A stretch of DNA of 64,000 nucleotides from an uncultured bacterium. GTDB taxonomy: Bacteria; Planctomycetota; UBA1135; UBA2386. The notes under the pieces were generated by a model. It was not told the origin of the DNA. It worked only from the letters and a program-made list of their open reading frames with translations, and did no database searches. Below are positions 2,569 to 55,236 of the stretch, one piece after another. The stretch is taken from the NCBI GenBank assembly GCA_937952215.1, contig CALFZH010000042.1, forward strand, positions 43,840-107,839. Reading direction: 5' to 3'. The first letter of the stretch is position 1, and every line of letters starts with the position of its first letter. Made by a program: the position numbers and the translations under genes.

Positions 2569-2576
2569 GGCGCGCC

Positions 2577-6358: not shown

Positions 6359-6445
6359 GATCCGACGACGGGACGCGGGACGTGCTGCTGCGGGAGGACC
6401 GTGCGCGTTGGTTGCGCGGGTCGGGCGCGGGCCAAGTTCGCGGCG

Positions 6446-7027: not shown

Positions 7028-7103
7028 GGCGCCATGGTGCCCTGGCCCGGCGTCGCTGTCACCCGATGAGGAGTCGCGCGCCGGAGCGCGGAGCACGTGG
7101 GAA

Positions 7104-7277
7104 GTGCTTTGCATTCTCGAACTACGCTTCGTGCGCGGCGAACCGACTGCGCCGCGCCTGCTGGTGCACCACCCCGATGTCATCCACCTCGGTGCCGCGA
7201 CGCGCACGCAGGGCACGGCCCGCGAACTCGCGATCGTCGATCCGTGGGGCAACGCGTTGACACTGAGCAGCGAGTGA
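7104..7277 (+). pseudogene. Possible C-terminal remnant of a VOC/glyoxalase-family protein
   Basis: The tail of track ORF 6972..7277 reads ...HLGAATRTQGTARELAIVDPWGNALTLSSE, which resembles the last beta-strands of glyoxalase/bleomycin-resistance folds (DPxGNxhxL). Only about 57 codons are present, less than one full domain. Confidence 0.25.
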
Positions 7278-7476
7278 CGACGCATGCAGGGATCGCGCAC
7301 GGTGCCGGGCCAGCGGCCGTTTCCTGAGGATCGCGCGGGCGAAGAAGAACATCGCCTCGCTCGGCGCTCACCACCCGCCGACGAAGACGATCTGATTCCT
7401 GCCCTGGCCTGACTGCCCACCGCTACCTGCCAAGAACGAGTTTGCCGTCGCTCCACCGGGAGCGTTCACTTCTGCC

Positions 7477-8124: not shown

Positions 8125-8544
8125 GTCAGCGTGGCCGGAGCCACAACCCGCGCATGCGCCGCCCGGTCGCCGCATGTCTCTGCGCCCTGGCCAGACGCGG
8201 GGCGTGCTTGGGCGGGAGGATCGTGGGGTGGGTTCTCGGTTGGTCCGTGACCGCAAGCTCCTCTTGCCTACTCCCGAACGTGTGCAGGCAGGCCGTGCAG
8301 CGGGACCGCTGTACGGGCTTCGTTTGCAACTCGGCTGCGAGTAGCCGAAGCGGATGCAGGCGCGGGCTTGGCTGCAGGTGGTTCGAGCAGACCTGTCCGC
8401 TGGGCGCGAACGTGGTGGGGATGGGCCCCCAACGGGCTGGCCCGACCGGCTGGACGGGGGGGGGCGCAGGAGGGACGATGACGAGGTGGGTTCCGGGTCG
8501 TCCGGGACCCCAGCTCCCTCTTCCCACTCCCGCAGAGGAGCACC

Positions 8545-16931: not shown

Positions 16932-17519
16932 TCACTCTCGGTCGAGGATCGCCGACAGCGCAACCAACGAGCGCGACAGCAGCGTGCGCACCGCATTCTC
17001 GGTGCGTCCCAAGATCCTGGCGACCTCGGGGATCGGGAGTTCCCCGAGGCGGGCCAGCGCGATGACCTCGTGCTGCTCGGGCTTGAGTTGGTCCAGCGCC
17101 CGATAGAGCGCCTCGCCCGCCTCGCTGCCGATCGCCACGCGGCTCGGCGAAGCCAGCCCTGCACGAGGGTCGACGATGCCCTCCATTTCTGCCGACTCGC
17201 GATCGTGTTGGCGCTTCTTCGTGCGCTGGCTGCGGAGGCGCATGCGCACCTTGTTGACGGCGGCGGTGAACAGCCAGCTACGGAAGCGCGCCTCCCCCTG
17301 CCAGGTGAAGTCCGGCCCGGCCTGCAGCAGTTCACGGCAGGTCGACTGCACGAGGTCGGCGACCGACTCGTTGAGCCGCTGCTCGGCATCGATCTTCGCC
17401 CGCAGGAACGCGTGCAGCCGCGGCAGGTAGAGCACCAGCATCCGGTCGATGCTCACGGCGTCGCCGCGCGACGCCGATTCGGCCAAGGCTCGATCTGCGC
17501 TGTCGTTGGTCTCGGTCAC
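16932..17519 (-). CDS. ECF-type RNA polymerase sigma-70 factor
   Basis: 3' part of track ORF 16932..17810 from the GTG at 17519 (VTETNDSADRALAE...). Region 2-like sequence DLVQSTCRELL...FRSWLFTAAVNKVRMRLR. Region 4 HTH LKPEQHEVIALARLGELPIPEVARILGRTENAVRTLLSRSL. Confidence 0.85.
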   Translation of the reverse strand: MTETNDSADRALAESASRGDAVSIDRMLVLYLPRLHAFLRAKIDAEQRLNESVADLVQSTCRELLQAGPDFTWQGEARFRSWLFTAAVNKVRMRLRSQRTKKRQHDRESAEMEGIVDPRAGLASPSRVAIGSEAGEALYRALDQLKPEQHEVIALARLGELPIPEVARILGRTENAVRTLLSRSLVALSAILDRE

Positions 17520-17614
17520 CGCGGGTTGCTTCGCCGAAAATCCGGCCGCACGCCCGCAAGACCCGGGCGCGGCCGGCACTGTACCATCCAGACTCCCGCC
17601 TCGCTGGCCGCCGG

Positions 17615-20600: not shown

Positions 20601-21412
20601 TCGCGACGGTCGTGCGGGTGCTCAACGACCGGCGCCTGTTCGTGGGCACACAACACGGACACCTCGCGTTCTGGGACCGAGTGGCCTTCGCATCGGTGCT
20701 CGATCAGGTGAAGTTCTCGATGCCCGTGCGCAACCTGGTCGTTGCGCCGGACGCCACGTGGGTGGCGGCGATCGCGAAGTCAGGGGCCCCACTGATCCTG
20801 CGCGGGGACGACTCGGCACCGCGCGACGCCGAGTTGGTCCGCCGGCGCGTGAGCATCGAACGGGCCCGGGCGCGTACCGTCGAAGCGATGCAGTGCCATT
20901 GGCCGCCTCGCGCCGCCCGCTCCTTGCGTGCCAACGCAACGTTGTCGACCGCCGAACAGGAGTTGGCGTTGACGCTGCTGCCGCCGCTTGGCTCTTGGAC
21001 CGTCGGCGCAGCCGGGCGTCGGCTCTTCACGGCGCCCATGACGTCAGCGGCGCGCGATGCCCTGCGCCCGCAGTTCGAAGCCATCGCCGAGGGATTCGCC
21101 GCCCTCGGGGATGCGTCCACGCTGTGGTTGCGATGCGCATACGCGCTTGCCGCAGTGCGCATGCAGCAGCCTCGAGCGGCTCTCGACGCCTTGGCACCGG
21201 TACGGATCGACCCGAAGGTCGGCCCCGACCACGAGGAGGGCTTCTTCCTGCAGGACGTGACCTTCGTGCGCAGTCTTGCCCACCTGCAGTTGGGCGATCG
21301 CGCTGCTGCAGTCGTCGAACGCGAGCGACTGGCGGAGCTCATCCGTGGCGAGTTCGCCAAGGACGAGCGTGCGCACCTGTTCCTGAGCGAGCTCGACGCC
21401 GAGCTGCGCTGA
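17615..21412 (+). CDS. Ser/Thr protein kinase with TM segment and large WD40/beta-propeller-like plus helical C-terminal region
   Basis: Track ORF of 1265 aa (alternative ATG at 17633, MNTPDALL). Kinase motifs: GGGGMGVVWLAEH, VAIKMI, HRDLKLGNLMV, DFGLA, PYMAPE. TM helix ALATAALLSLLALLIVPTAF. The rest has repeated beta-strand-rich blades. Confidence 0.9.
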   Translation: MRVHAAMNTPDALLADLFARPDDEWRAGLEQLCREHPECEPELRRRFSRLEQAGVAMPIENKAQALQDAPEHFGPYRLLRRLGGGGMGVVWLAEHETLHREVAIKMIRPERLWFDNARERFQREVEAVARLRHHGCVQIHQVGDVDGLPYFAMEYVAGASCDQLTAALRATGKPPHELTGADLMVALRAHRGSVESESSELFAGSWVRVAVRIALAAAEALAHAHARGVVHRDLKLGNLMVSPEGRVVLIDFGLAVAEGTSPLTSAGALLGSLPYMAPEQLRAEAAVIGERTDVYALGVCLYELLALTGPFAARNESGLRSDILAGNAVPLRAHNAAVASDLQVVVARAMHVDAERRYESASHFAADLAAVLQDRPVQARRDALPARLMRWGRRRPALATAALLSLLALLIVPTAFSLAIAGQRDRALAAEQLARQREYGANIAAASDAMLVGNGEEARLRLEACAPELRDFEWRYLNLSQDDSLATIRVGTRPVSAVAVVPDGGLLAAGSDDGRVCVAAVDGSGTVREVVAAGGPGITAIGFGVGAAELFVVDAAATLRVFEVATGDLRRERAASQPHEALWLPNPVTHVVSDGGGARLQLLDATTLAASPPVGLSLQDGVTVRNYGIDDNEIVSGTSRGAAIWNLVDGSIAASLVTMQPTVVLGASVGLQSVLLESDGIPTLWHRTEQKAVPAAIDLRGRPPLTTLFVDEGRHIVLPFADGDIHVYDVAQSRTVRTMHGHQGALTAAAAVPHSASFVTGGEDGTVRRWDCRVHNGQLELLGYGYGRSLAIGETGHLLTGGEDAVVRATDVATGAPIWWGDSQHWVNGVAVMPGSDLVVSSFHERLGFWSASDGTSRGWLDLPDSGMASRLLMLPTHGLLAVASRVGRVTLVADEPRRVQRQLDVHQDLITDLAFDAARSRLWTCGHDGKLQWFAIDGADAPVVVDTIDGKFESMALAGDTIYTSEASADGRRGSLCERDAATGEIRRRRAVAEIATVVRVLNDRRLFVGTQHGHLAFWDRVAFASVLDQVKFSMPVRNLVVAPDATWVAAIAKSGAPLILRGDDSAPRDAELVRRRVSIERARARTVEAMQCHWPPRAARSLRANATLSTAEQELALTLLPPLGSWTVGAAGRRLFTAPMTSAARDALRPQFEAIAEGFAALGDASTLWLRCAYALAAVRMQQPRAALDALAPVRIDPKVGPDHEEGFFLQDVTFVRSLAHLQLGDRAAAVVERERLAELIRGEFAKDERAHLFLSELDAELR

Positions 21413-37851: not shown

Positions 37852-40800
37852 CTACTTGCCGAGTGCGTCGAGTCGCGCCTGCCACTGCGCGATCTCGGCT
37901 GCGCGCGCCGGGGACGAGTCGATCTTCGCCCACGCCGTGTGCAGATCGACGTGAGCCTGGGCGCAGGCGCGCGCCTCGCGCCCCTGCGTCTGCTTCGCCT
38001 CGGTGAGCAGGTTCCAGGCCTCGGCCAGCGTCGCCTCGGCCGCCGTGAAGTCTGCGGTGGTGGTGGCCAGCCCGGCCATCGCCCGACCGCGGCGCACCAG
38101 GAAGATCGGCAGGCTCGAGGTCGAACGGGCGGCAGCGAGGCGACGCATCGCGCCGTCGATCGGCTCGAGCAGGGCGAGTGCGTCCGCGTGGCGACCCTGC
38201 AGGTTGCGCAGATGCGCCAGCGAGATCCGTGTGACGAGCGTACCCGGATGTTCGGCGCCCTGCGTGCTCGTCTGCCGTTCGAGGGCCGGGCGCAGCATGT
38301 TCTCGGCGTCGTCGTAGCGCTGCAGCGTCATCAACACCGAGCCGAGGTTGTTCATGCCCTGCAGGGTGTACTGGTGGCTGTCGCCGAGCTTCGCCGCAAG
38401 GCGCGTCACGGCCTCGCGCAGTACCGGCTCCGCTTCGGCGTGGCGGTTGGACAGGTACAGCATCATCCCGAGGTTGTTGATCGAGGTGAGCGTCGCCGGG
38501 TGGTCGTCGCCGAGCAGGCGCCGGCGTCGTTCGAGCACGTCGCGCATCAACGGCTCAGCGGCGTCGTACTGTCGCCGGCTCAGCAGCAGGTTGGCGAGGT
38601 TGTTGCCCGAGCTCAGCGTCTCCGGATGGTCCGGGCCGCGCAGCCGCAGGCGCAGTTCGAGCGCTTCGCGGAGGAACGGCTCGGCTTCGTCGAGGCGCCC
38701 CTGCTCCTGCAGCAGCAGGCCGAGGTTGTTCATCGGCACCAGGGTGTTGAGGTGTTCGCGGCCGTAACGCCGCAGCCGTACCGCGAGCGCTTCGCGGAAC
38801 AGCGGCTCGGCGTCGCCCGGGCGGCCGAGGTCCTTCAGCAGCTGGCCGAGGTTGTTCAGCGAGCGCAGCGTGTCCGGGTGTTCTTCGCCGTGAAGGCGTC
38901 GGTACACCTCGAGTTGCTGGCGCAGCAACGGCTCGGCCGCCGCGAGCTTGCCGACATCCTGCAGCACGATCGCCAGGTTGTTGCCGGTGCCGAGCGTGTC
39001 GGGATGGTCGCTGCCCAGCGTCGCGCGGTACCCATCGTAGGCCTCCTGCAGCATCGGCTCCGCCTCGTCGAGCCTGCCGAGTTCGCCGAGCAGGTAGCCG
39101 AGGTTCTTCTGCACGGCCAGCGTGCGCTCGTGCGTCCTGCCATACACCTGCTGCGTCTTCGCCAGCGCCTCGCGATACCACGGCTCGGCCTCGGCGAACT
39201 GGCCCTGGCTGCGCATGGCCAACGCGGTGTTGTTGATCGCGCGCAGCGTGAACGGCGCCAGCTCGCCAAGCGTGCGCCGCGCCGTCGCCAGCGCCTCGTC
39301 GACGAGTGCGCGTTCGGCCGCCGCGTCGCCGCGGTCGTGCTGCAAGAGCGCCAGATCTTCGATCGCCAGCAGGGTGCCGAGATGGTCGTTGCCCAACTCG
39401 GTGCGCAGGGTCGCCAACGCAGTGCTCATCAGCGGCAGCGCGTCGTCGTACATGCCCAACCCCCGATAGAGGTTGGCCAACACCTGCCGCATCGAGGCCG
39501 CAAGCGTCGGCTGTTCGGCGAACGTGCGCTCGACCGCCGCCGTCGCGGGGCGCAGGATCGTGTGGTCGATCACCGTGCGGGCGAGGTCGGTGGCATTGAG
39601 GCGCTGCCAGCCATCCCGCCACTCCGTCACCATGCGTTCGCGTACGGGCGGCGGCAGTTCGGCCTTCGCCATCGCCGCGTCGAACTTCGCCAGCACCTCG
39701 TCGGTCAGCTGCATGCCGGCGCGGGTGACGTCGACCTGTTCGAGCATCGATCCCTGGAAATCGACGACCAGCTGCAGTTCGGCGGCGCGCTTCTGCGTGG
39801 CCGTCTCGGCGAGGCCGGCGCGCCGAGCCTCTGCGCTGGCGATGCTCGCCTGCCACGCGAACGCGACCACCCCGGCCACGAGCGATGCCGCGAGCAGGCT
39901 CCCCGCGACGACCGGGCCGCGGTGCCGACGCACGAACTTGCGCAGCCGGTAGGCGCGGCTCGGCGGGGCCGCGACCACCGGGTCGCCGGCGAGATGGCGG
40001 GCGATGTCGGCGGCGAGGCTGTCGGCGGTGCCGTAACGACGGGCGCGGTCCTTCTCGAGCGCCATCATCACGATCCAATCCAGGTCGCCGCGTAGCAGCA
40101 GGCCGAGGCGTCTCGGCTCCACTCGCCGGTGCGCGGCGATGTTCGCCAACAACTCGTGCGACTCACTCAGGCGGGTCGACGGGCGCGGCGGGTCGACTTC
40201 GCGGATCAGCCGCTGGACCTCGCCGAGCATCGCATCCTGCAGGGTCCGGCGATCGAACGGGGTGCTGCCGGTGAGCAGTTCGTACAGCAGCACGCCGAGC
40301 GAGTAGACGTCGGTGCGCGTGTCGATGTCGAGCGAGCCCGCCGCCTGTTCGGGGCTCATGTACTGCAGCGTGCCGATGACCTGCTGGTGTTCGGTGAACA
40401 GCGTCTTGTCGGTCAGCTTCTGCGAGGTCGCCTTGGCGATGCCGAAGTCGATCACCTTGGCCACCGCGCGGCCGTCCTGCGTGGCGACCAGCACGTTCGA
40501 TGGCTTGAGGTCGCGATGGATGATGCCCTTGCCGTGCGCGTGCTGCACCGCATGGCACACCTGCACGAACAGGGCGAGGCGCTCGTCGATCGTCAGCCGG
40601 TTCTTGTCGCAGTACTCGACGATCGGTGCGCCCTTCACCAGGTCCATCACGAAGTAGGGGCGGCCCGTGGCGGTGGCACCGGCATCGAGCACGCGCGCGA
40701 TGTTCGGATGGTCCATCAAGGCGAGGGCCTGACGTTCCTGTTCGAACCGCGCGATCACCTGGCGCGTGTCCATGCCGAGCTTGACGATCTTGAGGGCAAC

Positions 40801-41121
40801 CCTGCGCGCGACCGGTTGCTCCTGCTCGGCGAGGAACACCACACCGAAGCCGCCCTCGCCGATCTGCTGCAGCAGCTTGTAGGGGCCGATGCGCGTGCCC
40901 GGGCCTTCGCCGGCGGCCGCACTCGGCGGCGCGATGGTGGGGCCGAGGCCGGTCGGGCCCGCGAGGAACTGCTCGTCGTCGGCGGCCGCCAGCATCGCCA
41001 GCACGCGCTGCTGCAGCGCCGAGTCGTCGGCGCAGGCCTCGGCGAGGAACCGAGCGCGCTCGGCGGCGGGTACGTCGAGGGCGCGGTCGAACAACTGGCG
41101 AAGTCGCTGGTTGCCGGTCAT
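37852..41121 (-). CDS. Ser/Thr protein kinase with TM segment and TPR-repeat C-terminal region
   Basis: Track ORF of 1089 aa. Kinase motifs GEGGFGVVFLAEQ, VALKIV, HRDLKPSNVLV, DFGIA, YMSPEQ. TM helix VVAGSLLAASLVAGVVAFAW. About 10 or more TPR-like units of 42 aa (LGxxHPDTLxSxNNLAxLLxxxGxxxEAEPLxRxAL). Confidence 0.9.
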   Translation of the reverse strand: MTGNQRLRQLFDRALDVPAAERARFLAEACADDSALQQRVLAMLAAADDEQFLAGPTGLGPTIAPPSAAAGEGPGTRIGPYKLLQQIGEGGFGVVFLAEQEQPVARRVALKIVKLGMDTRQVIARFEQERQALALMDHPNIARVLDAGATATGRPYFVMDLVKGAPIVEYCDKNRLTIDERLALFVQVCHAVQHAHGKGIIHRDLKPSNVLVATQDGRAVAKVIDFGIAKATSQKLTDKTLFTEHQQVIGTLQYMSPEQAAGSLDIDTRTDVYSLGVLLYELLTGSTPFDRRTLQDAMLGEVQRLIREVDPPRPSTRLSESHELLANIAAHRRVEPRRLGLLLRGDLDWIVMMALEKDRARRYGTADSLAADIARHLAGDPVVAAPPSRAYRLRKFVRRHRGPVVAGSLLAASLVAGVVAFAWQASIASAEARRAGLAETATQKRAAELQLVVDFQGSMLEQVDVTRAGMQLTDEVLAKFDAAMAKAELPPPVRERMVTEWRDGWQRLNATDLARTVIDHTILRPATAAVERTFAEQPTLAASMRQVLANLYRGLGMYDDALPLMSTALATLRTELGNDHLGTLLAIEDLALLQHDRGDAAAERALVDEALATARRTLGELAPFTLRAINNTALAMRSQGQFAEAEPWYREALAKTQQVYGRTHERTLAVQKNLGYLLGELGRLDEAEPMLQEAYDGYRATLGSDHPDTLGTGNNLAIVLQDVGKLAAAEPLLRQQLEVYRRLHGEEHPDTLRSLNNLGQLLKDLGRPGDAEPLFREALAVRLRRYGREHLNTLVPMNNLGLLLQEQGRLDEAEPFLREALELRLRLRGPDHPETLSSGNNLANLLLSRRQYDAAEPLMRDVLERRRRLLGDDHPATLTSINNLGMMLYLSNRHAEAEPVLREAVTRLAAKLGDSHQYTLQGMNNLGSVLMTLQRYDDAENMLRPALERQTSTQGAEHPGTLVTRISLAHLRNLQGRHADALALLEPIDGAMRRLAAARSTSSLPIFLVRRGRAMAGLATTTADFTAAEATLAEAWNLLTEAKQTQGREARACAQAHVDLHTAWAKIDSSPARAAEIAQWQARLDALGK

Positions 41122-41338: not shown

Positions 41339-43774
41339 TCACCGCTGCGCGAGGTCGATGCGACCCTCGACGTCCTTGTAGTCGGGACCGATCGTGAACT
41401 CGGCTGCGCCCTGCAGTCCGTCGTCGGTGGAGTACTCGATGCGCCAGGTTCCCGGCTTTGCCGCTATCACCACGGGGTAGGGCCGGATGTCGTTCTCATA
41501 CTCGCCGTTGCGTTCGACGAGCAGCGTGCCGTCACTGCCGGTCACGCGATAGCGCCACGTCTTGCTGCCCTGGTGCCCGCTCGGCCACCACACGCCGAGT
41601 CGGGCCAGTGCGCAGCGGCGCACTTCGACGGTCGCGGTGCCCGTGACGCCAGCCTGCACCGTCGCTTTCGTCTTGCGGTACTCGAGGCCGGAGCCGAAGC
41701 ACGAGACTTCGTACTCCCCGGGGGTCAGGTTCTCGGCGAGGTACTCGGTGGCGTTGCGGAGGGTGATGATCGACGAGCCGGTACCCGGGTCGCCGTCGCG
41801 GCGAAGCACGATCTTCGGCTCGAGGTTCGCTGCGTTCGCGTCGCGATCGATGGTGATGCGCAGAGCGCCGCCTGGTTCGGTGACCAGCACGCCCGCATCG
41901 ACCGTGGCGGCAGCGACCACCTCGAACCAGTCCGACACCGCGAGCACCGAGGTGCCTTCGACGAGCGACACGCGACAGCGTCCTGGCTCGATGTCCTTGA
42001 TGCGGAACGCACCGTCCTTGATCTCCGCGCCCTCGCGCCAGGAGGCGTTGCCGATGTGCAGCGTGACCGTGGCGGCGCGTGGATTGCGGATGCGGCCGCC
42101 GCGGTCGTCGATGCGGCCCGTGACCACGCCGGGCTCGACCTTGGCCGGTTTGTCGAAGTCGGCGCGTATCTCGACCTTGCCCTGGTCGGGCACCAGACCG
42201 CCGCGGCTGATGAAGCCAGCGCCGCCGGTCGGGAGCCACACCTGGACACGCAGCGAGTACGTCGATGCCTCGAGGCAGCAGAAGCGGAAGCCGGCATCCC
42301 GATTCGTGTCGAAGGTCTGCGAGGCGCCCGATCGCTCGTCCGTGAGCGTCACGAACAGGTCCGGGAACGGGAACCCGTCGCGGTAGAGCACGATGCCGCT
42401 GATGGTGCGGCCTTCGTCGAGCACGGGGTTCCATTCCGTGTCGCTGCCGGGCGCGATCTCGAGAACCTGCTGCGCCGAGACCAGCGTCTTGGCGGTGCCG
42501 GAGGTGCGGTCGCGCTGTTCCTGCGCGAACACGTGCGCGGTGCCCGGCGTGATGCCTTCGAGGCGGTAGTTGCCCTCGGCATCGCTGTGCGTGCCGAGGT
42601 GTCCGAACTCCACGTCGAAGTCGATCTGGCCACCGGCCAGGAAGTCCGTTTCCGGCGCGCGATCGTAGGCGCGGATCGTGGCTCCGGCGCTCGGCTTGCC
42701 GTCGCCATCGGTGACGCGGCCATGGATCGTGCCCGCGACCTGCAGTGCGACCTCGATCGTCGTCGGCGCATCCGCCGCGATCGTCACCTCGGATCGCCAG
42801 AACCCGAAACCCGCAGCGCGTGCGGACACCGGCTGCTTGCCGGTCTCGAGCCCGTCGATGGCGAAGCGGCCATCGGCATCGGTCCTTGCGTGACGACCGG
42901 TCCATTGGGCGATGAGCTTGCCGCCGCGGTGCTCGAGGTGCTTCGGGAAGACCCCGGCGACGACGATCGCTCCGGCGATCGGCGCACCGGCGCTGTCGCA
43001 CACGCGGCCCATCAAGCTGCCGCCGGACGGAGTCAGCTGCAGTGTGATCTCGGTCGAAGGCTTCGACGTGTCGATGGAGCCGAGGTCGATTAGTGGCGAG
43101 GGACCGAAGCCCGCGGCGATCGCGCCCAGCGAGGCGCTCGTCGGCGCGTGCGGCAGCTCGAAGGTGCCGTTGGCGTCGGCGGTGGCGATCGATCGGCCGT
43201 TCCACCACGACTGGCCTGCGGTCTGCTGCCAGATCGTCGCTCCGGCGACCGCGCGGCCGGTCGGATCGACCACCTTGCCGCGCACGTTCCCTCCAGCCTT
43301 CAACTGGAAGCGATACTCGTTGTCGCCCGGTGCGATCTCGACCGTTGCGCTGTCGCCGCGATCCGCCCTGACCTGCAGCTTGCCGAGCGGGACCTCGGTG
43401 AAGAGCACGACACCGTTGGCGTCGGTCAAGCCCTGCGCGAACGGCTCGAACGACTGCGCGTAGCCGCGGTGGCGAAGGAAGACGCCGACGTCGGCAGCCG
43501 GCTGCGAATCGGGCCAGAGTGCGAGGACTCGCAGCGTGGCCTTCTGGGCGGTGGTCTTCGTCTCGTCCGGACTCGTTGGCGCCGCGATGCGCGACGCTTC
43601 GGGACTAGGACGATCGGATCCAGCGATGAGCGTGCCGGTGCCGGGCGCGCCGGTCGGTGCCGTGGAATCAGGAACGGGTGCTGGCTCGCCCAGGCCGAAG
43701 CCCTGCAGCAGCCAGAATGCGGCGACGGCGAGGAGGACGAGCAACGCGCAGACGATCGAGCGTTTCGCGGACAT
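41339..43774 (-). CDS. Single-pass membrane protein with multiple carboxypeptidase-regulatory-like (CarboxypepD_reg) domains
   Basis: Track ORF of 811 aa. N-terminal TM MSAKRSIVCALLVLLAVAAFWLL. Repeated units of the type VRGKVVDPTGRAVAGATIW...ADANGTFEL, LMGRVCDSAGAPIAGAIVV...TDADGRFAIDGL, IHGRVTDGDGKPSAGATIRA...SDAEGNYRLEGI. Confidence 0.85.
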   Translation of the reverse strand: MSAKRSIVCALLVLLAVAAFWLLQGFGLGEPAPVPDSTAPTGAPGTGTLIAGSDRPSPEASRIAAPTSPDETKTTAQKATLRVLALWPDSQPAADVGVFLRHRGYAQSFEPFAQGLTDANGVVLFTEVPLGKLQVRADRGDSATVEIAPGDNEYRFQLKAGGNVRGKVVDPTGRAVAGATIWQQTAGQSWWNGRSIATADANGTFELPHAPTSASLGAIAAGFGPSPLIDLGSIDTSKPSTEITLQLTPSGGSLMGRVCDSAGAPIAGAIVVAGVFPKHLEHRGGKLIAQWTGRHARTDADGRFAIDGLETGKQPVSARAAGFGFWRSEVTIAADAPTTIEVALQVAGTIHGRVTDGDGKPSAGATIRAYDRAPETDFLAGGQIDFDVEFGHLGTHSDAEGNYRLEGITPGTAHVFAQEQRDRTSGTAKTLVSAQQVLEIAPGSDTEWNPVLDEGRTISGIVLYRDGFPFPDLFVTLTDERSGASQTFDTNRDAGFRFCCLEASTYSLRVQVWLPTGGAGFISRGGLVPDQGKVEIRADFDKPAKVEPGVVTGRIDDRGGRIRNPRAATVTLHIGNASWREGAEIKDGAFRIKDIEPGRCRVSLVEGTSVLAVSDWFEVVAAATVDAGVLVTEPGGALRITIDRDANAANLEPKIVLRRDGDPGTGSSIITLRNATEYLAENLTPGEYEVSCFGSGLEYRKTKATVQAGVTGTATVEVRRCALARLGVWWPSGHQGSKTWRYRVTGSDGTLLVERNGEYENDIRPYPVVIAAKPGTWRIEYSTDDGLQGAAEFTIGPDYKDVEGRIDLAQR

Positions 43775-47685: not shown

Positions 47686-48384
47686 TCAAGCCTCCGGCTG
47701 TTCGACCAGCCGGTAGCCGACGCCGTGGACCGTCAGCAGGAACTGCGGCCGTCGGCAGTCGGCCTCGACCTTCTGCCGCAGGTTGAGCATGTGGGTGTCG
47801 ATGGTGCGATCGCCGACGAACGGCGAGCCGCCCCAGACCTCGCGCAAGAACTCGGCGCGCGGCACCGCCCGCCCCGCGCGCTGCCGCAGCAGGCGCAGCA
47901 TCGCCGCTTCCTTCGGCGACAGGGTGTGGGTCGTGCCGCCGCTCACCACCGTGAACGCGGCGAGGTCGACGCGCACCGCACCCAAGGTGAACTGCTCGAT
48001 CAGGGCCGCATCCGGGCGTTCGCGGCGGCGCAGCATCGCCTTCACCCGCGCCAGCAGTTCGCGCAGCGAGAACGGCTTGGTCACGTAGTCGTCGGCGCCG
48101 AGTTCGAGCCCGAGCACCTTGTCGCCCTCTTCGCCGCGCGCGGTCAGCAACAGCACCGGCGTGTCGCCGTCGCGCGCCCGCAGTTCGCGCAGCAGCTCGA
48201 GACCACTCGGCCCCGGCAGCATCACGTCGAGCACCACCAGGTCGAACCGCTGCGCGCGCAGCACCGCCCGCGCCTCGTGGCCGTCCGCCGCCGTGATGAC
48301 GGTGTGGCTCTCGCCGGTCAGCGCATCGTGCAGGCCGATGCGCAGCGTGCGATCGTCTTCGACCAGCAGGATGCGGCCGCTCAC
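47686..48384 (-). CDS. OmpR-family response regulator
   Basis: 3' part of track ORF 47686..49575 from the GTG at 48384: VSGRILLVEDD...DLVVLDVMLPGPSG...LLLTARGEEGDKVLGLELGADDYVTKPF (receiver), then LSPKEAAMLRLL...DRTIDTHMLNLRQKVE...VHGVGYRL (winged helix). Confidence 0.9.
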   Translation of the reverse strand: MSGRILLVEDDRTLRIGLHDALTGESHTVITAADGHEARAVLRAQRFDLVVLDVMLPGPSGLELLRELRARDGDTPVLLLTARGEEGDKVLGLELGADDYVTKPFSLRELLARVKAMLRRRERPDAALIEQFTLGAVRVDLAAFTVVSGGTTHTLSPKEAAMLRLLRQRAGRAVPRAEFLREVWGGSPFVGDRTIDTHMLNLRQKVEADCRRPQFLLTVHGVGYRLVEQPEA

Positions 48385-50141
48385 GTGGTCGTCTCCATGG
48401 GCAGGAAGAACGTGAAGCACACGCCCGGGCCGCCGTCCAGCGGGTCGGTCGCGACCAGGTCGCCGCCGAGCCGGCGTGCGATCGACCGCGCGAGGTAGAG
48501 CCCGATGCCGATGCCGGGCGTGCCGCCGTGCGCGTGCGCCGCGCCGCGCACGAACCGATCGAAGATGCGTTCGCGTTCGGCCGCCGGCACACCGGGCCCA
48601 CGATCGCGGACGTCGATCGCGGCGCGGTCGCCGTCGCGGCGTGTGGTGATCTCGATCGGCCCGCCGGCACCGCCGTACTTGCGCGCGTTGTCGAGCACCG
48701 CGACCAGCGCCTGCACCAGCGCGCTGCGATCGGCGCGCACCATGGCGCCAGCAGCGGCGCCGCGCCGGATGCCGCCGCCCTCGTGCTCGAACACCGGAGC
48801 CAGCATGGCCACGGTCTCGTCGACGACCTCGTCGACGGCGACGCTGCGCAGTTCGTAGGAACGTTCGCCGCGTTCGAGCCGCCCGAGGTCGAGCACGTTC
48901 TCGATCAGCATCGACAGCCGACCGGCCTCGCCGGCGAGCATGCGGTAGTAGTCGGCTTCGCGGCCGCGCGCGCGACCGTCGACGAGCATCTCGCCGAGCA
49001 GCCGGATCGCGGCGAGCGGCGTCTTCAGTTCGTGCGTGACCGTGGTGAGGAACTCCGACTGCGTGCGCACGGCGGCGACTTCGGCGCGCGCGGCCCGCAG
49101 CTGCAGTCGGATCGCACCGACGAACGCGATCACCAGCAGGAGCAGGAGTCCGCCGACCGCCGCTGGCTGCAGCCAGGGCGAGCCGCGCACCGGCATGTCG
49201 ATGCCGGCAACGCCCGGCAGCCCGACGAACGTCGTGTTGGCGGCGTCGGCGAGCGCGAACGACCACGGCAGGGGCAGCTCGGGCAGCGCCGACTCGCGGC
49301 CGGCGGCGGTGATCGCGGCGACGAACTCGGCGGACGTGACGGCGGCGAGATCGTGACCACCTCCATCGCGGGCCTGCCACCACAGCAGCCGCTCGGGGGT
49401 CAGTGGGCGCATGCCAGCTTCCGTGCCAGGGCGGTCGGTTCGCCACGCCGTCGCCAGGGCGACCAGCCGCTCGCGGCGTTGCACGACGGTCTGGTGTTGG
49501 TCGCGCCACGCCGTCGATGCCGGCAGGCTCGCGAACAGGTCCGGCGGCAGGAACGGCGCCAACTGCGCGGCCCACGGCGGTGGGGAGTCCGACGCCACGA
49601 GACGCAGCGTGCCCGCCACGACCCGCGCGAGATCGGGCCGCCTCAGGTCGGCGGGTGCGAGGGCAGCGAGTCGTTCGTCGAGTTCAGTCCGCAGCACGCG
49701 CAGTCGATCCGGGTCGCCGGCGCGCAACGCGTGCCATGCCGCCGCCAGCACGACCTGGCAACGCGTCGCGACCGCCAACGGAGCGGCGAGCAGTTCGTCG
49801 TAGGCCGTACGCGTGGCCGCTGCGTCGCCCGCCACGAATTCGCTGCGCGTCGCCCGCTCGAGTCGATCGGCGACCACGGCGTCGGCATCCACTGCGGACG
49901 GCTCTTGCTGCAGCCAGCCGACGTCGTCGATCTGCAGCGTGCCGTCGCCGAGAGCCACGGCCCGGGTTGCGGCTGGCAGCGTCGCGAAGGCGACGCGCGA
50001 CGCCGGGGCGCGCTGCAGGATGCGCTCCGCGACGGCATGCGCCCGCGCGGCTTCGGCCTCGCGCAGCCCTTCTTCGAGGCGCCCCGATTGCCACAGCAGC
50101 CACGCCAGCACGGCGACGATGCCGCTGCCGGCGAGCAGCAA
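48381..50141 (-). CDS. Sensor histidine kinase
   Basis: Track ORF of 586 aa with a TTG start. N-terminal TM, a ~300-aa periplasmic-like region and a second TM (AAVGGLLLLLVIAFVGAI). H-box FLTTVTHELKTPLAAI, N-box LDNARKYG, G-boxes DRGPGVP and GIGIGLYLAR. The stop overlaps the response-regulator start (GTGA). Confidence 0.9.
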   Translation of the reverse strand: MLLAGSGIVAVLAWLLWQSGRLEEGLREAEAARAHAVAERILQRAPASRVAFATLPAATRAVALGDGTLQIDDVGWLQQEPSAVDADAVVADRLERATRSEFVAGDAAATRTAYDELLAAPLAVATRCQVVLAAAWHALRAGDPDRLRVLRTELDERLAALAPADLRRPDLARVVAGTLRLVASDSPPPWAAQLAPFLPPDLFASLPASTAWRDQHQTVVQRRERLVALATAWRTDRPGTEAGMRPLTPERLLWWQARDGGGHDLAAVTSAEFVAAITAAGRESALPELPLPWSFALADAANTTFVGLPGVAGIDMPVRGSPWLQPAAVGGLLLLLVIAFVGAIRLQLRAARAEVAAVRTQSEFLTTVTHELKTPLAAIRLLGEMLVDGRARGREADYYRMLAGEAGRLSMLIENVLDLGRLERGERSYELRSVAVDEVVDETVAMLAPVFEHEGGGIRRGAAAGAMVRADRSALVQALVAVLDNARKYGGAGGPIEITTRRDGDRAAIDVRDRGPGVPAAERERIFDRFVRGAAHAHGGTPGIGIGLYLARSIARRLGGDLVATDPLDGGPGVCFTFFLPMETTT

Positions 50142-50293
50142 CGGCAGCGGGCGACGCGCGCGAGGAAAGGGGCGGAGCGAGGCGATGGCGACACGCTAGT
50201 CAGGGCCGTCCCGGCCTGGTCAAGAAACGGTCAAGCCGCGGGCGACCTGCACATCGTTGCATCCTGCGCGCGCCCCGCGGGGTGCTACGGTGC

Positions 50294-52651
50294 ATGGCTC
50301 GCATGGCCCCTTCGCCGAGTATCGCCCGCGAACTGGTCGCGCACAGCCAGGCGCTGCGGCGGCTGGCCCGCGACCTCGTCGGCAGCTCCGACGCCGACGA
50401 CCTCGTGCAGGACACGGCTGTGCGCGCGCTGCGTTCGCCGCCGGCGGTCCCGGACGGGCTGTTCGCATGGCTGGGCACGGTCATGCGCCGACTCGCCGCC
50501 AATCGCCGCCGCGGCGACCTCCGGCGGCGCCGGCGCGAGGCGGCGAACGGGCCGGCGGCGAGCGGTCCGGCCGCCGACGAAGAGCCCGCACGCTGCGACC
50601 TCGCGCGCGCCGTCAGCGAGGCAGTGTTCTCGCTGCCGGAGCCGTACCAGACCGCGCTCGTACAGCGCTACTTCCAGGACCTGTCGCCGGCGGCGATCGC
50701 CGCGCGCACGGCGGTGCCGCTGGCGACCGTGAAGAGCCGACTGCAGCGCGGGCTCGAACATCTGCGGGCGACGCTCGCACGCCGCGACGGGCGTGACTGG
50801 CGCCTAGCCCTCGTCCCCGCGATCGGCCTGCCGGGGCGAGGCCAGTGGCTGTGGCCGTTCTCGGTGAGCCTGATGTCCACTTCCGGCAAGGTGATCGTCG
50901 TGGTTGCGGCGTCGGCACTGGCGGCGTTGGCCCTGTGGATGCCGCGCACCGAGCCGCCGCCGCCCGCGATCGCCGCCGACGCAGTCACGGGCAGCGTCGC
51001 CGCCGTCGCGGCCGCGGGCCCCACGCTGCTGCCCGCGCGCGAGGCTGTTGGCGTGGAGGAGTCTGTAGGACTCGCCGAGTTGGCGCAGCCGTTCGCGTTC
51101 GAGCTGCACTGCCGCGTCGTCGACGACAGTGGCTTGGCGATCGGCGGTGCCAAGGTGGCGATCGCGCCGCGCGCCTGTGCGCTCGCGACGTGGCCGGTGG
51201 CGACCGACAACGACGGTCGCGTCGTGCTGGCGTGGCGCGCGCGCGCGCGCCGGCTCGTCATGACCGTGGGGCTCGAACACGGCGGCTCGCGCACGTCGCT
51301 GCAGCGGCTCGAGGTCGCGGCCGGCGAACCCGCGCACGTGCACTTCGTCGCCGGACAGTCGCCGCTGCCGGCCAGCGTGCATGTCGACGAGTCCGGGCGT
51401 CAGGTGGTGTCGATGCCGGACTGCAGCCAGGGGCGCACCGACTGCATGGCCTGCCACGACACGTGGAAGGGCGCCGACCTGTTCGGCGCGTGCGCTGACG
51501 TGCGCGCCGGGCTGCATCCCGACGCGCTGTTCGGCGAACGGGGCCAACCGCTCATGCTCGGGCTCCACGTGAACTCCGCCGGGCCGGAGATGGAGATCGA
51601 GTTCACGGATTCGGTCGCGACCGGAACCAACGAAGCGCGTCGGCCGCAGCGGCACATCAGTGGCCGCGTGTTCGGCGCCGACGGGCGCCCGGTGCCGGGC
51701 GCGCGCCTCGAGATCCACCGCCCGGACTTCTTCGGCGGCGGCACGCGCACGCGGCCGGATGGCAGCTTCCGCTTTGCGTGGCCGGTGCCCGGCGATGGCC
51801 GTGTGTGGGTGCGTGCAGGCGGCGGTCCCGAGGGGCTGGCGACGATGGTGCTCGATGTCGGCGACGACCTGCCGATCCACGGCGACCTGCACCTGCAGAC
51901 GGGGCGCGTGCTGCGCGGCCGCGCGGTCGGCACTGCCGGTCAGGCGCTGAGCGGCGCGCGCGTCGAGTACGTCGCTGCGCCGGGCCAGGACGGCGACGTC
52001 GCGACGGTCGGTCCCGACGGCGCGTTCGCGTTCGCCAACCTGCCGCCGGGGCCTGGGCACCTGCTCTTGTGGGGCGTGCGCGGCGAACGGCTGCCGATCG
52101 CCGAACTCGGGCCGGTGCTGGCGGACGGCAGCGACGTGCTGTTCGACCTGCGCACCGCCGCACCGGTGGACGGCTCGCTGCGGCTCGTCGTGCAGAGCCA
52201 TGACGGCGGCGAGGCCGTCGATGCGGAGGTGTTCGTCTGGCAACTCGCGACGCGCCGCGGCTCGGTGGTCGAGCGTGGCAAGGACGGCGCGTTCCACACG
52301 CACGGCCTCGCCGCCGGCTTCTATCGCATCGAGGTGACAGCACTCGGCGGCGGCGTCCACGATCTCGGCGAGCATTGGCTCGACGGCCGCGGTCTCGTCG
52401 AACTCGCCCCGTTCACGTTCCCCGCGCCGGCGAAGCTCGTCGTCGAGCACGATGGCCTCGAGGTTCTCGAGCTGCTGCAGCCGCGCGCGGACATCGACGT
52501 GCGGGCCCACCTCGTCTCGGGCTTCCGCGGCACGGTGCTGCTGCCGGCGGGGCCTTGGCTGGTGCTCGCCAAGGGGGTCGGTGATGGCGTGCGCCGGGCC
52601 GAGGTCGAGCTTCGCGCCGGGGAGACGGAGGTGTTGCGGTTCGAGCGGTGA
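50294..52651 (+). CDS. ECF sigma factor fused in frame to a TM helix and an extracytoplasmic region with carboxypeptidase-regulatory-like domains and one CXXCH motif
   Basis: Inside track ORF 49403..52651, which has no stop anywhere between the domains. Start at ATG 50294 or 50303. Sigma region 2: DADDLVQDTAVRAL...FAWLGTVMRRLAANRRR. Region 4: LPEPYQTALVQRYFQDLSPAAIAARTAVPLATVKSRLQRGLEHL. TM: GKVIVVVAASALAALALWM. Then CMACH at 51443-51457, and ISGRVFGADGRPVPGARLEI...RPDGSFRF and LRGRAVGTAGQALSGARVEY...GPDGAFAFANL. Confidence 0.8.
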   Translation: MARMAPSPSIARELVAHSQALRRLARDLVGSSDADDLVQDTAVRALRSPPAVPDGLFAWLGTVMRRLAANRRRGDLRRRRREAANGPAASGPAADEEPARCDLARAVSEAVFSLPEPYQTALVQRYFQDLSPAAIAARTAVPLATVKSRLQRGLEHLRATLARRDGRDWRLALVPAIGLPGRGQWLWPFSVSLMSTSGKVIVVVAASALAALALWMPRTEPPPPAIAADAVTGSVAAVAAAGPTLLPAREAVGVEESVGLAELAQPFAFELHCRVVDDSGLAIGGAKVAIAPRACALATWPVATDNDGRVVLAWRARARRLVMTVGLEHGGSRTSLQRLEVAAGEPAHVHFVAGQSPLPASVHVDESGRQVVSMPDCSQGRTDCMACHDTWKGADLFGACADVRAGLHPDALFGERGQPLMLGLHVNSAGPEMEIEFTDSVATGTNEARRPQRHISGRVFGADGRPVPGARLEIHRPDFFGGGTRTRPDGSFRFAWPVPGDGRVWVRAGGGPEGLATMVLDVGDDLPIHGDLHLQTGRVLRGRAVGTAGQALSGARVEYVAAPGQDGDVATVGPDGAFAFANLPPGPGHLLLWGVRGERLPIAELGPVLADGSDVLFDLRTAAPVDGSLRLVVQSHDGGEAVDAEVFVWQLATRRGSVVERGKDGAFHTHGLAAGFYRIEVTALGGGVHDLGEHWLDGRGLVELAPFTFPAPAKLVVEHDGLEVLELLQPRADIDVRAHLVSGFRGTVLLPAGPWLVLAKGVGDGVRRAEVELRAGETEVLRFER

Positions 52652-52755: not shown

Positions 52756-55236
52756 ATGACCGGATGCCGCTTCGTTTCGTCCCTGCTGCTCTTCGCCGGC
52801 CATCTGCTGCGGCCGTGCGATGCGCAATGCTCGACGTCGTGGCTCGCGGGCTCGGCGCTGACCGGCGTCTCGGACACGGTGGTCGCCTGTTCGCTGTGGG
52901 ATCCGGACGGTGCCGGCCCTGCCGGGCCGCGCCTCGTCGTCGGTGGTGAGTTCGCGGTCGCCGGCGCGACGACGTCGGGTCTCGTCGCGGCGTTCGATCC
53001 GACGACCGGTGTCTGGTCGGGTTTCGGCGCCGGCCTCACGCCGCTCGCGGACTACTCGGCAGTGCGCGCGTTCGCCACGCTGCCGACCGGCGAGCTCGTC
53101 GTCGGCGGTCACTTCGCTGGCTACATCCGGCGATGGAACGGCAGCGCGTGGACCAACCTTGGCGCGGCCCCGTTCTCGAACTGGGTGATGGCCCTCGCCG
53201 TGGCGAGCAACGGCGATCTGTTCGCCGGCGGCACCGGGACTGGCGTCTGGCGATTCAGCGGCACGACGTGGTCGACGACGACCTCGGGCTACACCAACGG
53301 CGTGCACGTGCTGACCACGCTGGCGAACGGCAACGTCGTCGCAGCCGGGTACGTGAACACGTCCGGCGACAGCATCGTGCGTCGCTGGAACGGCACGACG
53401 TGGACCGCACTCGGCGGCATCTTCGACGACTTCATCGACACGATCGTCGAGCTGCCCAACGGCGACCTCGTGGCGGGCGGCAGGTTCATGAGTGTCGGTG
53501 GCGTCGCTGCGTACGGCGTCGCCCGCTGGAACGGCAGCACGTGGTCGGCGATGGGCAACGGCTTGCACGTCCGCAGCGCGGTCAGCGGCGAAGTCACGGG
53601 GCTCGTGCCCCAAGCCAACGGCGACGTGATCGCGGTCGGCACGTTCACGCGATCGGGTTCGACCGTGCTCAGCAACATCGCGCACTGGAACGGCAGCGTG
53701 TGGTCGCCGTACGCGACCGCGATGCCGAACTACGCGACGTGCGCGCTCACGCTGCCCGGCGGCGACCTCGTGGTCGGCGGTCCGTTCGTCGCGATCGGCA
53801 GCACGAACGTCTACGGCATCGGTCGGTGGAACGGCAGCGCGTGGAGCCCGCTCGGCAGCGGCGCCAACGGTGAGGTCCGCTCGGTCGCGGAGCTGGAGAA
53901 CGGCGACGTGGTCGTCGGCGGCACGTTCACGCAGATCGGCGGCGTGGCGTGCAACCGCATCGCCCGCTGGAACGGCACGACGTGGTCCCCGCTCGGCTCG
54001 GGCGCGGACGGGGCGGTCCAGGCGCTGCTGGCGCTGCCCGGCGGCGAGGTCGTCGCCGGCGGATGGTTCGGGACGATGGGTGGTGTCACCGCGAGCCGCA
54101 TCGCCCGTTGGAACGGATCGACGTGGAGCGCCGTCGGTACGGGCATGAACGACGCCGTCATGGCGCTCGCGCGCCTGCCCAACGGCGAGATCGTCGCCGG
54201 CGGGTACTTCACGACCGCGGGCGGCGCTGGCGCCAGCCATGTCGCGCGGTGGAATGGTGCGTCCTGGCAGCCGCTCGGCACGGGCTTCGGCGGCGGTCTG
54301 CCGTTCCAGTCCGTGCGCACGCTGCTGGTGCTGCCGGACGGCTCGCTCGCCGCTGGCGGCTTGTTCACGACCGCCGGCGGCGTGCCGGCGAATCGCGTTG
54401 CTCGATGGGACGGGGCCACGTGGTCGCCGTTCGGTAGCGGGTTCGCGGCTGGCGTGGTGAACGCACTCGCCATCAACGGGGCGGGCCAGCTGCACGCCGC
54501 CGCCAGCTTTTTCTCGCCGCAGCGCGTCGCCCGGTGGGACGGCAGCACGTGGTCCACGATCGGCGGCGACGTGCTCGGCGACGCCGACGCGATCGTCTGC
54601 CTGCCCGACGGCGACGTCGCCGTCGGCGGCTTCTTCCAGACGGCGGGCGGCGTGCCGGTCCGCAATCTCGCGCGCTGGAACGGCACCACCTGGTCGTCGC
54701 CGCAGAACGGCATCGACAACCGCGTGCTGGCCCTCGCCATGGGGCAGAACCAACTCATCGCCGGCGGCGCGTTCGCGCGCACGGGGGCCGTCGCTTCGGC
54801 GTCGTTCGGCCGCCTCGCAACGACCTGCCCGACCAGCGTCACGTCGCTGCCGACGGCGTGCCTCGGCCCGGCCGGCCCGGTCGTCGCGACCGCCGATTCG
54901 CGGCCGTGGATCGGCGCGAGTCTGCGCACGCACGCGACGGGGTTCGCTCCCGGTACGTTCGCGGTCGTCGTGGGTGGCACCTCGCTGCAGAACGTGCTGC
55001 TCAGCACCCTGACCCCGACCGGCGGTGCCGGCTGCGAGCTGTTCCCCGCTCCCGACGCGCTGGCCGCGGTGGCCACGGTTGGGGGCACCGCGTCGTTCGC
55101 ACTGTCCATACCCGACAACCTGGGGCTGGTCGGCGCGCCGGTCTGGCTCCAGTACCTGCAGGTCGAGCTGCCCGGCGGGGTGTGGACCGGAACGACGGGT
55201 TCGAACGGCCTGGCGTTCACCGCCGGCGCCTTCTAG
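52756..55236 (+). CDS. Secreted beta-propeller-type tandem-repeat protein (12-13 units of ~47-52 aa) with shared C-terminal module
   Basis: Track ORF 52648..55236. The ATG at 52756 gives MTGCRFVSSLLLFAGHLLRPCDAQ (signal). The repeat core ARWNG(S/T)xWSxLGxG...V.AL..LPNGDLVAGGxFTxxGGVxAxxI recurs 12-13 times. C-terminal module: ...GAGCELFPA...SIPDNLGLVGAPVWLQYLQ...SNGLAFTAGAF. Confidence 0.85.
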   Translation: MTGCRFVSSLLLFAGHLLRPCDAQCSTSWLAGSALTGVSDTVVACSLWDPDGAGPAGPRLVVGGEFAVAGATTSGLVAAFDPTTGVWSGFGAGLTPLADYSAVRAFATLPTGELVVGGHFAGYIRRWNGSAWTNLGAAPFSNWVMALAVASNGDLFAGGTGTGVWRFSGTTWSTTTSGYTNGVHVLTTLANGNVVAAGYVNTSGDSIVRRWNGTTWTALGGIFDDFIDTIVELPNGDLVAGGRFMSVGGVAAYGVARWNGSTWSAMGNGLHVRSAVSGEVTGLVPQANGDVIAVGTFTRSGSTVLSNIAHWNGSVWSPYATAMPNYATCALTLPGGDLVVGGPFVAIGSTNVYGIGRWNGSAWSPLGSGANGEVRSVAELENGDVVVGGTFTQIGGVACNRIARWNGTTWSPLGSGADGAVQALLALPGGEVVAGGWFGTMGGVTASRIARWNGSTWSAVGTGMNDAVMALARLPNGEIVAGGYFTTAGGAGASHVARWNGASWQPLGTGFGGGLPFQSVRTLLVLPDGSLAAGGLFTTAGGVPANRVARWDGATWSPFGSGFAAGVVNALAINGAGQLHAAASFFSPQRVARWDGSTWSTIGGDVLGDADAIVCLPDGDVAVGGFFQTAGGVPVRNLARWNGTTWSSPQNGIDNRVLALAMGQNQLIAGGAFARTGAVASASFGRLATTCPTSVTSLPTACLGPAGPVVATADSRPWIGASLRTHATGFAPGTFAVVVGGTSLQNVLLSTLTPTGGAGCELFPAPDALAAVATVGGTASFALSIPDNLGLVGAPVWLQYLQVELPGGVWTGTTGSNGLAFTAGAF
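53128..54710 (+). repeat. Imperfect tandem coding repeat, period ~140-158 bp
   Basis: The CGNTGGAACGG/CGNTGGGACGG (RWNG/RWDG) core recurs at about 53131, 53383, 53525, 53683, 53825, 53965, 54107, 54247, 54400, 54533 and 54672. One degenerate unit lies between the first two. Confidence 0.8.

Follow-up and report, generated by a model that had tools for sequence, protein, structure and literature searches.

The window analyzed here is a stretch of 64,000 nucleotides (nt) from an uncultured planctomycete (contig CALFZH010000042.1 of assembly GCA_937952215.1, positions 43,840 to 107,839), and the gene in question lies at 50294-52651 on its forward strand. It encodes a single polypeptide of 785 amino acids (aa) in which an extracytoplasmic function (ECF) sigma factor is followed by a transmembrane (TM) helix and a long, predicted extracytoplasmic part, which contains one CXXCH motif within a conserved Cys/His module. 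The gene and its elements are as follows.

50258-50288 (+): predicted autoregulated ECF-type promoter, with -35 TGCATCC at 50258-50264 and -10 GGGGTGCTAC at 50279-50288
50294-52651 (+): complete coding sequence, 785 aa plus stop, with continuous GC3 (G+C content at third codon positions) and full-length homologues at 28-56% identity
50339-50515 (+): sigma region 2, aa 16-74 (Pfam PF04542 Sigma70_r2, E = 9e-8; ECF matches in Foldseek)
50609-50764 (+): sigma region 4, aa 106-157 (Pfam PF08281 Sigma70_r4_2, E = 5.5e-11; predicted local distance difference test score, or pLDDT, 91-96)
50765-50884 (+): predicted cytoplasmic linker, aa 158-197 (about 35 aa between region 4 and the TM helix), with an RRDGRDWR motif and Met194...Lys199
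50885-50941 (+): single Ala-rich TM helix, aa 198-216, GKVIVVVAASALAALALWM (Kyte-Doolittle 2.07; AlphaFold2 helix at 199-214)
51077-51349 (+): first beta-sandwich, aa about 262-352 (AlphaFold2 strands at 267-352, pLDDT 88-96)
51416-51520 (+): Cys/His module, aa 375-409, PDC-x6-CMACH-x19-LHP, candidate covalent heme-c site
51653-52648 (+): four CarboxypepD_reg-like beta-sandwiches, aa 454-785 (Pfam PF13620; pLDDT mostly 85-96)

A first-pass annotation, made from the sequence alone, had described a complete ECF sigma factor with regions 2 and 4 that continues without a stop codon through a single hydrophobic helix into an extracytoplasmic region with carboxypeptidase-regulatory-like beta-sandwiches. 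Its descriptions of these elements, and the coordinates that it gave for the gene, were all correct. A single stop-free open reading frame (ORF) spans 49403-52651, and translation from 50294 gives the 785 aa with no internal stop. In the frame of the gene, GC3 is 0.52-0.63 upstream (49403-50182) and 0.85-0.93 over 50303-52582. Because GC3 jumps near 50294 and then holds, the gene should start near there, and both halves should be coding in one frame.

The fusion is also widespread. A search of 5.8 billion proteins identified 103 homologues; the sigma domain is present in all 103 and CarboxypepD_reg-type domains in nearly all, and the main hydrophobic segment is nearly always at about aa 180-230. 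The homologues that are named are almost all from metagenome-assembled genomes (MAGs) of Planctomycetota. A scan of GTDB species genomes identified 79 loci (L numbers below), again nearly all from Planctomycetota MAGs and with several paralogues per genome, and we confirmed on the DNA of 27 loci that the sigma domain continues in frame into the extension. The same layout therefore recurs in the homologues and in independent MAG assemblies, and this sequence evidence places the protein in a Planctomycetota-specific family of one-polypeptide ECF sigma factors. The sole cultured genome among the loci is that of Saltatorellus ferox Poly30 (NZ_CP036434.1), whose gene (L072:3950-6630) encodes a sigma-TM-extension protein of the wider family without CXXCH and has GCATCC-like elements upstream. 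Experiments on how tethered sigma factors work in general could use S. ferox as a model.

In addition to PF04542 and PF08281, the sigma domain matches NCBIfam TIGR02937 (sigma70-ECF) above its cut-off (50.4 versus 42.9). Every match to the subfamily and equivalog models of NCBIfam was below its cut-off. The protein contains sigma2 and sigma4 only, without sigma1 or sigma3, which is the composition of ECF (group 4) sigma factors. When we ran AlphaFold2 on a 30-sequence alignment (mean pLDDT 77), the sigma domain was modeled with confidence, aa 215-258 were disordered, and aa 357-449 were poorly modeled. With Foldseek, the N-terminus matched SigL from M. tuberculosis (31% identity), sigmaE/RseA from E. 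coli, and AlgU/MucA.

The first-pass annotation had also proposed that an anti-sigma-like part is covalently fused to the sigma factor. We reject an anti-sigma domain in the linker, which is only about 35 aa long and has no Pfam match to an anti-sigma family (ZAS/zf-HC2, RskA, or FecR) at E <= 1. The linker is disordered in the AlphaFold2 model (pLDDT below 50 over aa 181-201). W169 and K199 do not vary in the 30-sequence alignment, in which R170 and M194 are found in 90% or more of the sequences. A juxtamembrane element of two hydrophobic residues and then Met-x3-4-Lys precedes the TM helix at about 50870-50890 (aa 193-199). Met-x3-4-Lys is also common before the TM helix in the wider family, and the element might serve in cleavage or targeting or provide an internal start.

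The TM helix (GKVIVVVAASALAALALWM, aa 198-216) is the sole strongly hydrophobic segment of the protein. Across 53 sequences, the 15 residues before it have a mean net charge of +0.9 and the 15 after it one of -1.2. Because of this bias (positive inside), the C-terminal part is predicted to lie outside the cytoplasm, so that the topology is N-in, C-out, with the sigma domain in the cytoplasm. Hydropathy, the modeled helix, and the charge bias thus agree with a single TM helix and with a CXXCH motif on the extracytoplasmic side, as had been claimed.

The roughly 570 extracytoplasmic residues comprise five beta-sandwich domains and the one Cys/His module. PF13620 (CarboxypepD_reg) matches four stretches, with a total of 87.6 bits versus a gathering cut-off of 32.3, and Foldseek with the C-terminus found the chains of Ig-like or transthyretin-like domains of pilins, adhesins, and macroglobulins. 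Another protein in the window, of 811 aa at 41339-43774 (-), has four CarboxypepD_reg repeats and a hydrophobic segment at its N-terminus but no sigma domain. It is not a close paralogue, as there is only weak, repeat-level similarity between the two (E = 0.012).

The protein has seven Cys residues (101, 273, 295, 377, 384, 387, and 400), and its lone CXXCH is CMACH at aa 384-388 (nt 51443-51457). The codon for H408, which is also part of the module, is at 51515-51517. The chance expectation for CXXCH in a protein of this composition is 0.0017. CXXCH is present in 28 of the 31 nearest database matches and in none of the 72 more distant fusions (which are about 570-1300 aa). C384, C387, and H388 reach at least 90% conservation in the 30-sequence alignment, from which only three divergent members deviate, as the entire segment is missing in them. 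We also aligned 35 sequences with CXXCH jointly with 18 sequences without it: the three residues are 100% conserved in the former, which have identities as low as about 28%, and the motif is absent from the latter. The motif is therefore not a chance occurrence, as had been argued at first pass, and the check that had been suggested for it, conservation of CMACH in orthologues, was passed.

More of the module is conserved than CXXCH. All 35 of these sequences have a third Cys upstream, 7-11 residues away (24 in one), and the signature of the clade is (P-x-)C-x6-10-C-x2-C-H...x18-19...G-L-H-P, with x23 after the first Cys in one sequence. H408 lies in a GLHPxAxF motif and is kept in 97% of the sequences with CXXCH and in 100% of those without it. 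When we compared a profile of the module to 1.84 billion representative proteins, we obtained only 34 matches. Of these, 27 belong to this family and carry the module at the position that it has here; among the remaining seven, all of them repetitive, five have many CXXCH motifs and two have none.

In a neighbor-joining tree, the sequences with CXXCH form one large clade, apart from an outlier near the root (P0031). Nested within the clade is L011, which has FRVTH at the site of the motif, so that both Cys were replaced together; this is a secondary loss. Among the genomes, the architecture of about 780-800 aa is found in a branch with CXXCH (L003-L010, L012, and L021) and in a branch without it (15 loci at 32-36% identity). 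Paralogues of the two kinds often share a MAG (for example, L004/L023, L005/L016, and L006/L014). The loci with this architecture that lack CXXCH are L011, L013-L020, L022-L028, and L055 (see, for example, L016:3950-4000).

We think that the module probably carries a covalent c-type heme. Covalent heme c is defined by just such a signature: an invariant CXXCH in which His directly follows the second Cys. Heme c is attached outside the cytoplasmic membrane, and in a host with cytochrome c maturation, an exported CXXCH is normally a substrate for heme attachment. CMACH is C-terminal to the TM helix in a positive-inside topology, as expected for the exported CXXCH of c-type cytochromes. The predicted topology puts the module in the compartment where such hemes are attached. 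The window encodes an MtrC/c7-like protein with 16 CXXCH motifs, which implies a putative capacity for cytochrome maturation in the host.

Comparisons of the module to known proteins point in the same direction. Of the 60 listed matches of the module profile to PDB sequences, 59 are c-type cytochromes or other proteins with covalent heme c. For example, QADCRTCHQG from a reaction-centre tetraheme subunit was aligned at its heme site (E = 2e-6). Members of the family also have weak Pfam matches to cytochromes: Cytochrome_CBB3 in five members, the magnetochrome family MCR in two of 25 (E = 0.027, far below threshold), c7, and NapC/NirT. From the signature, its location, and its conservation, we infer that the module binds heme, and it may sense redox state.

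Magnetochromes may indicate how such a small site could be ligated. The magnetochrome unit is [P/T/H]H-X5-9-CX2CH, of 19-28 aa, and is found in single-TM proteins; its upstream His serves as the sixth ligand (PMC3971196). In MamP, MamE, MamT, and MamX, the position of this ligand is 5-9 residues upstream of CX2CH, and the corresponding arrangement in our family is P-x-C-x6-10-CX2CH; the spacing of the upstream residue fits in 34 of the 35 sequences. However, that residue is Cys and not His, so these are not magnetochrome units as defined. The module is also present in a single copy, not as a tandem pair, and is not from magnetotactic bacteria. Ligation by His and Cys specifically is only a tentative suggestion.

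The predicted promoter of the gene is also conserved. The consensus upstream of the genes with CXXCH is TGCATCC-N14-GGGGTGnTAC, and all 13 aligned upstream regions keep GCATCC and G-GTG-T, with a spacer of varying sequence. The 64-kb window has one copy (0.01 expected), and the orthologous loci have exactly one copy each, directly upstream of the family gene. In seven loci, 5 nt separate the -10 element from the start codon (ATG in the window, L004, L005, L006, and L010; GTG in L003 and L007). This fixed spacing argues for the start at 50294, and it also suggests that the mRNA is leaderless. A bipartite promoter upstream of a sigma factor's own gene is, at the sequence level, what is expected for ECF autoregulation, and it suggests that the gene is autoregulated via this predicted promoter. 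When we scanned metagenomes with the promoter, there were 101 matches. Of the 80 that we inspected, four are real (L093, L095, L098, and L122), all upstream of family genes; the remaining ones are chance matches on unrelated contigs, many with low GC. We found no informative sigma70-type promoter or intrinsic terminator around the gene.

The branch without CXXCH has the same -35 element (TGCATCC) and another -10 element (GGCATGGATAC), within an element of the form TGCATCCGATC-N10-CGCGGCATGGATAC. The distinct -10 element fits with paralogue-specific autoregulation, and it hints that the promoters of the paralogues are insulated from each other.

Several known systems resemble this protein in part. 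IutY from Pseudomonas putida, an ECF243 hybrid, also has an N-terminal ECF sigma domain, a TM helix, and a periplasmic C-terminal part in one polypeptide. It is the only fused ECF that has been studied experimentally: proteolysis by Prc and then RseP frees the sigma domain, and truncated IutY is constitutively active (PMC8999054). In contrast to our protein, IutY has a FecR-type anti-sigma portion and receives its signal from a TonB-dependent siderophore receptor. The protein in the window has the sigma domain, the TM helix, and the extension of a fused hybrid, but it has no recognizable anti-sigma domain and no linked receptor gene, and its C-terminal part consists of beta-sandwich repeats and the CXXCH module. 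ECF48, ECF52, and ECF53 of Actinobacteria likewise combine an ECF sigma domain with one or two TM helices and a long extracytoplasmic extension, and proteolytic activation is predicted for them (PMC8999054). SCO4117, an example of these proteins, regulates its own gene, and proteolytic activation has been proposed (PMC5826349; PMC8999054). Unlike our protein, these groups have a Pro-rich, carbohydrate-binding extension, and a ZAS-like zinc finger precedes their TM helices. ECF52 was reported to be exclusive to Actinobacteria (PMC5826349; PMC8999054), whereas our protein is from Planctomycetota, is without ZAS, and has another extension, with CXXCH. ECF263, another known sigma-TM hybrid, has 5-7 TM helices.

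Within the same phylum, planctomycete ECFs with large and varied C-terminal extensions have arisen repeatedly (PMC7671368; PMC5766207; PMC8999054). These include ECF01-Gob/ECF57, with WD40 repeats, and the duplicated clusters of Pinto and da Fonseca 2020. The extension here has CarboxypepD_reg beta-sandwiches instead of the WD40 repeats of the ECF57 type, and those descriptions include no heme motif. Finally, periplasmic c-heme sensors, such as the PAS-like GSU0582 and GSU0935 or the heme Cache domain (DUF3365), couple an extracytoplasmic heme c to a cytoplasmic output. A CXXCH fragment inserted into a Cache scaffold creates a sensor of nitric oxide (2026 preprint; PMC3460858 and PMC12889525), and the pairs of paralogues with and without CXXCH parallel this gain of CXXCH by Cache scaffolds. 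The scaffold here is a linker module among beta-sandwiches rather than a PAS or Cache domain, and it is a sigma factor, not a kinase or a chemoreceptor, that forms the output.

We cautiously favor a reading in which a heme-c site, proteolytic release, autoactivation, and inactivity by tethering act together. The C-x6-10-C-x2-C-H module would bear a covalent heme c, in a minimal site with the spacing of the magnetochrome unit. H388 would be the proximal ligand, and the invariant upstream Cys or H408 of the GLHP motif would be the distal one. The redox or ligand state of the heme would alter the conformation or stability of the extracytoplasmic part, which would permit site-1 cleavage and then RseP-type intramembrane cleavage of the Ala-rich TM helix. 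The freed sigma domain would bind RNA polymerase and activate its own promoter (with a probably leaderless mRNA) as well as a regulon. We infer proteolytic release from the precedent of IutY, with Prc and RseP, and from the prediction for ECF48/52/53. As there is no anti-sigma domain, the sigma factor would be kept inactive before release mainly by being tethered to the membrane and not by occlusion. In a more specific version, which seems unlikely to us, the module would be a magnetochrome-like unit with His/Cys ligation, and a ligand switch in response to redox state or a gas, possibly to H408, would gate the release of sigma.

Several of our results weigh against this reading. The matches to cytochromes in the PDB are about 15 aa long and at the level of the motif, and they are partly circular, as any profile centered on CXXCH will find cytochromes. 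The module has no match to a cytochrome family above threshold (the best Pfam match has E = 0.003), and the AlphaFold2 model of the module is poor (pLDDT 35-68 in the full model; a mean of 68 and a predicted template modeling score of 0.34 when it was modeled alone). The isolated module had no significant match in Foldseek (best E = 1.4), so neither a cytochrome fold nor a zinc-finger fold is supported. As for the ligands, H408 is equally conserved in the paralogues without CXXCH, so by sequence it belongs to the scaffold and is not specific to heme, which weakens it as a heme-specific distal ligand. There is also no conserved Met in the alignment of the 35 sequences with CXXCH and the 18 without it. 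Neither the 64-kb window nor the orthologous loci contain a second match to the promoter, as might mark a regulon, and they contain no linked protease gene. The AAC (-35) and CGT (-10) hallmarks of ECF promoters (PMC8103513) are not present, which makes this an unusual promoter; membership of the protein in the ECF family is unaffected. Lastly, all of the members with CXXCH are from uncultured MAGs. Moreover, a metal site or a disulfide knot would account for the conserved Cys3-His pattern just as well. C377, C384, and C387 together with H388 or H408 would then form a site for Zn, Cu, or Fe or a disulfide/thiol redox switch, and the protein would be a metal- or thiol-sensing, or just disulfide-stabilized, membrane-tethered sigma factor. 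Three invariant Cys and two conserved His would make a plausible Cys3His site, and there are weak Pfam matches to PSI_Plexin-B (six members, E = 0.013), the TRAF3 RING, and a Zn ribbon, as well as one Zn-finger protein among the PDB matches of the profile. Cys-rich, metal-sensing extensions are known from ECF238 (CorE and CorE2), though those are cytoplasmic (PMC7826278). On the other hand, an invariant His next to the second Cys, as H388 is here, typifies heme c; a Cys3His(408) site would have no need of it, and adjacent residues seldom bind one metal. The spacing of the first Cys varies from 6 to 10 intervening residues (23 in one sequence), nearly all of the listed PDB matches have covalent heme c, and an exported CXXCH is normally a heme substrate in a host that, like this one, has a multiheme cytochrome gene. 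Overall, we consider a metal or disulfide site to be unlikely.

Other alternatives concern what the sigma domain does. It might never be released and might act while tethered, as ToxR and CadC do, or the heme might serve in electron transfer or in structure rather than in signaling. The lack of an anti-sigma domain, the flexible linker, and the lack of a linked protease gene would all fit with action in the tethered state. However, Ala-rich TM helices are probably typical of S2P substrates, and we know of no membrane-tethered sigma factor that is active. The activation of IutY by proteolysis, and the constitutive activity of its truncated form (PMC8999054), also argue for release, and we find it improbable that the sigma factor stays tethered or that the heme has such another role. 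More doubtful still is that an internal start at Met194 yields an additional TM-sensor without sigma, which would modulate the fusion by competing for protease or by heterodimerizing. The conservation of M194 and K199, and of Met-x3-4-Lys in the wider family, is consistent with this, as is the sigma-less protein of L082 (P0110), which begins exactly at the pre-TM Met, 47 nt after a retained copy of the family promoter. P0106 and P0124 also begin at the pre-TM Met. But the Met may simply belong to a structural motif or a cleavage motif beside the membrane, and L083 may be an artefact of assembly, as it directly follows the 3' end of a near-identical paralogue. At L082:314-2130, P0110 has 579 aa; its promoter is TTGCATCC-N-GGGGTGATAC, the ATG follows 47 nt later, and the gene upstream is on the opposite strand. 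At L083:1-2916, sigma-less P0106 is directly preceded by the 3' end of a near-identical family member, so that P0106 could be a tandem duplicate or an assembly artefact. Finally, if a frameshift from sequencing or assembly had joined a sigma gene to a downstream gene for a membrane protein, then there would be no fusion to explain. High GC makes long open frames common, and we found no other support for an artefact. GC3 is unbroken across the junction, residues at the junction are conserved, and over 100 proteins from independent assemblies have the same in-frame fusion, so we reject the artefact as extremely improbable.

Other genes in the window are as follows.

1-2568 (-): CXXCH-rich ORF with 9 motifs, which runs off the end of the window; no Pfam family
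4529-6355 (+): CXXCH-rich ORF with 16 motifs; Pfam Cytochrome_C7, MtrC-like, and c3
8545-10884 (+): CXXCH-rich ORF with 5 motifs; no Pfam family
16932-17579 (-): conventional ECF sigma factor, which matches the Sigma70_ECF family
17615-21412 (+): Ser/Thr kinase of 1265 aa with WD40 beta-propellers

The first-pass annotation had placed the gene in a region with 33 heme motifs in cytochromes. We count 30 CXXCH motifs, all in the three ORFs at 1-10884, which is about 39 kb away from the gene. No cytochrome family is found within 10 kb on either side of two orthologues (P0005 and P0013), so we reject a functional link to the multiheme cytochromes. The conventional ECF sigma gene is divergent to the kinase gene at 17615-21412, and the two resemble the ECF-kinase pairs that have been described in Planctomycetes. 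Another Ser/Thr protein kinase, of 1089 aa, is encoded at 37852-41121 (-) and is fused to a long TPR array.

Closer to the gene, an OmpR-type response regulator and a histidine kinase are encoded at 47686-50141 (-), divergently, across an intergenic region of 152 nt; these two ORFs overlap by 40 nt as called. The gene that begins 105 nt downstream (52756-55233, +) encodes 826 aa with an N-terminal hydrophobic segment, likely a secreted beta-propeller. It has many 'RWNGxxWS' repeats and matches the Rax2 and DUF5122 beta-propeller families. Further upstream of the sigma gene are genes for HEAT-repeat and CarboxypepD_reg proteins. None of these neighbors is conserved beside P0005 or P0013, and so we reject a link to the two-component system or to the beta-propeller gene.

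One-polypeptide hybrids of sigma factors and TM helices are already known and have been reviewed (IutY and ECF48/52/53), so the architecture is not new. Periplasmic heme-c sensor domains are likewise known, in chemoreceptors and kinases. What appears to be new is a sensor module that bears a cofactor in a sigma factor: in the literature that we searched, of which the coverage was incomplete, no sigma or anti-sigma protein was reported to have a c-heme motif or CXXCH. If the heme is confirmed, then sensing by a covalent heme in the periplasm and the regulated proteolysis of sigma/anti-sigma systems would be joined in one polypeptide. These planctomycetes would have a one-component path from the redox or gas state of the periplasm to RNA polymerase, and heme sensing would be extended to the direct control of RNA polymerase. 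The paralogue without CXXCH in the same genome, with its own -10 specificity, would provide a natural control. A comparison of the paralogues could show how a short cofactor-binding fragment makes a new sensor and how the sigma factors of this family stay insulated from each other.

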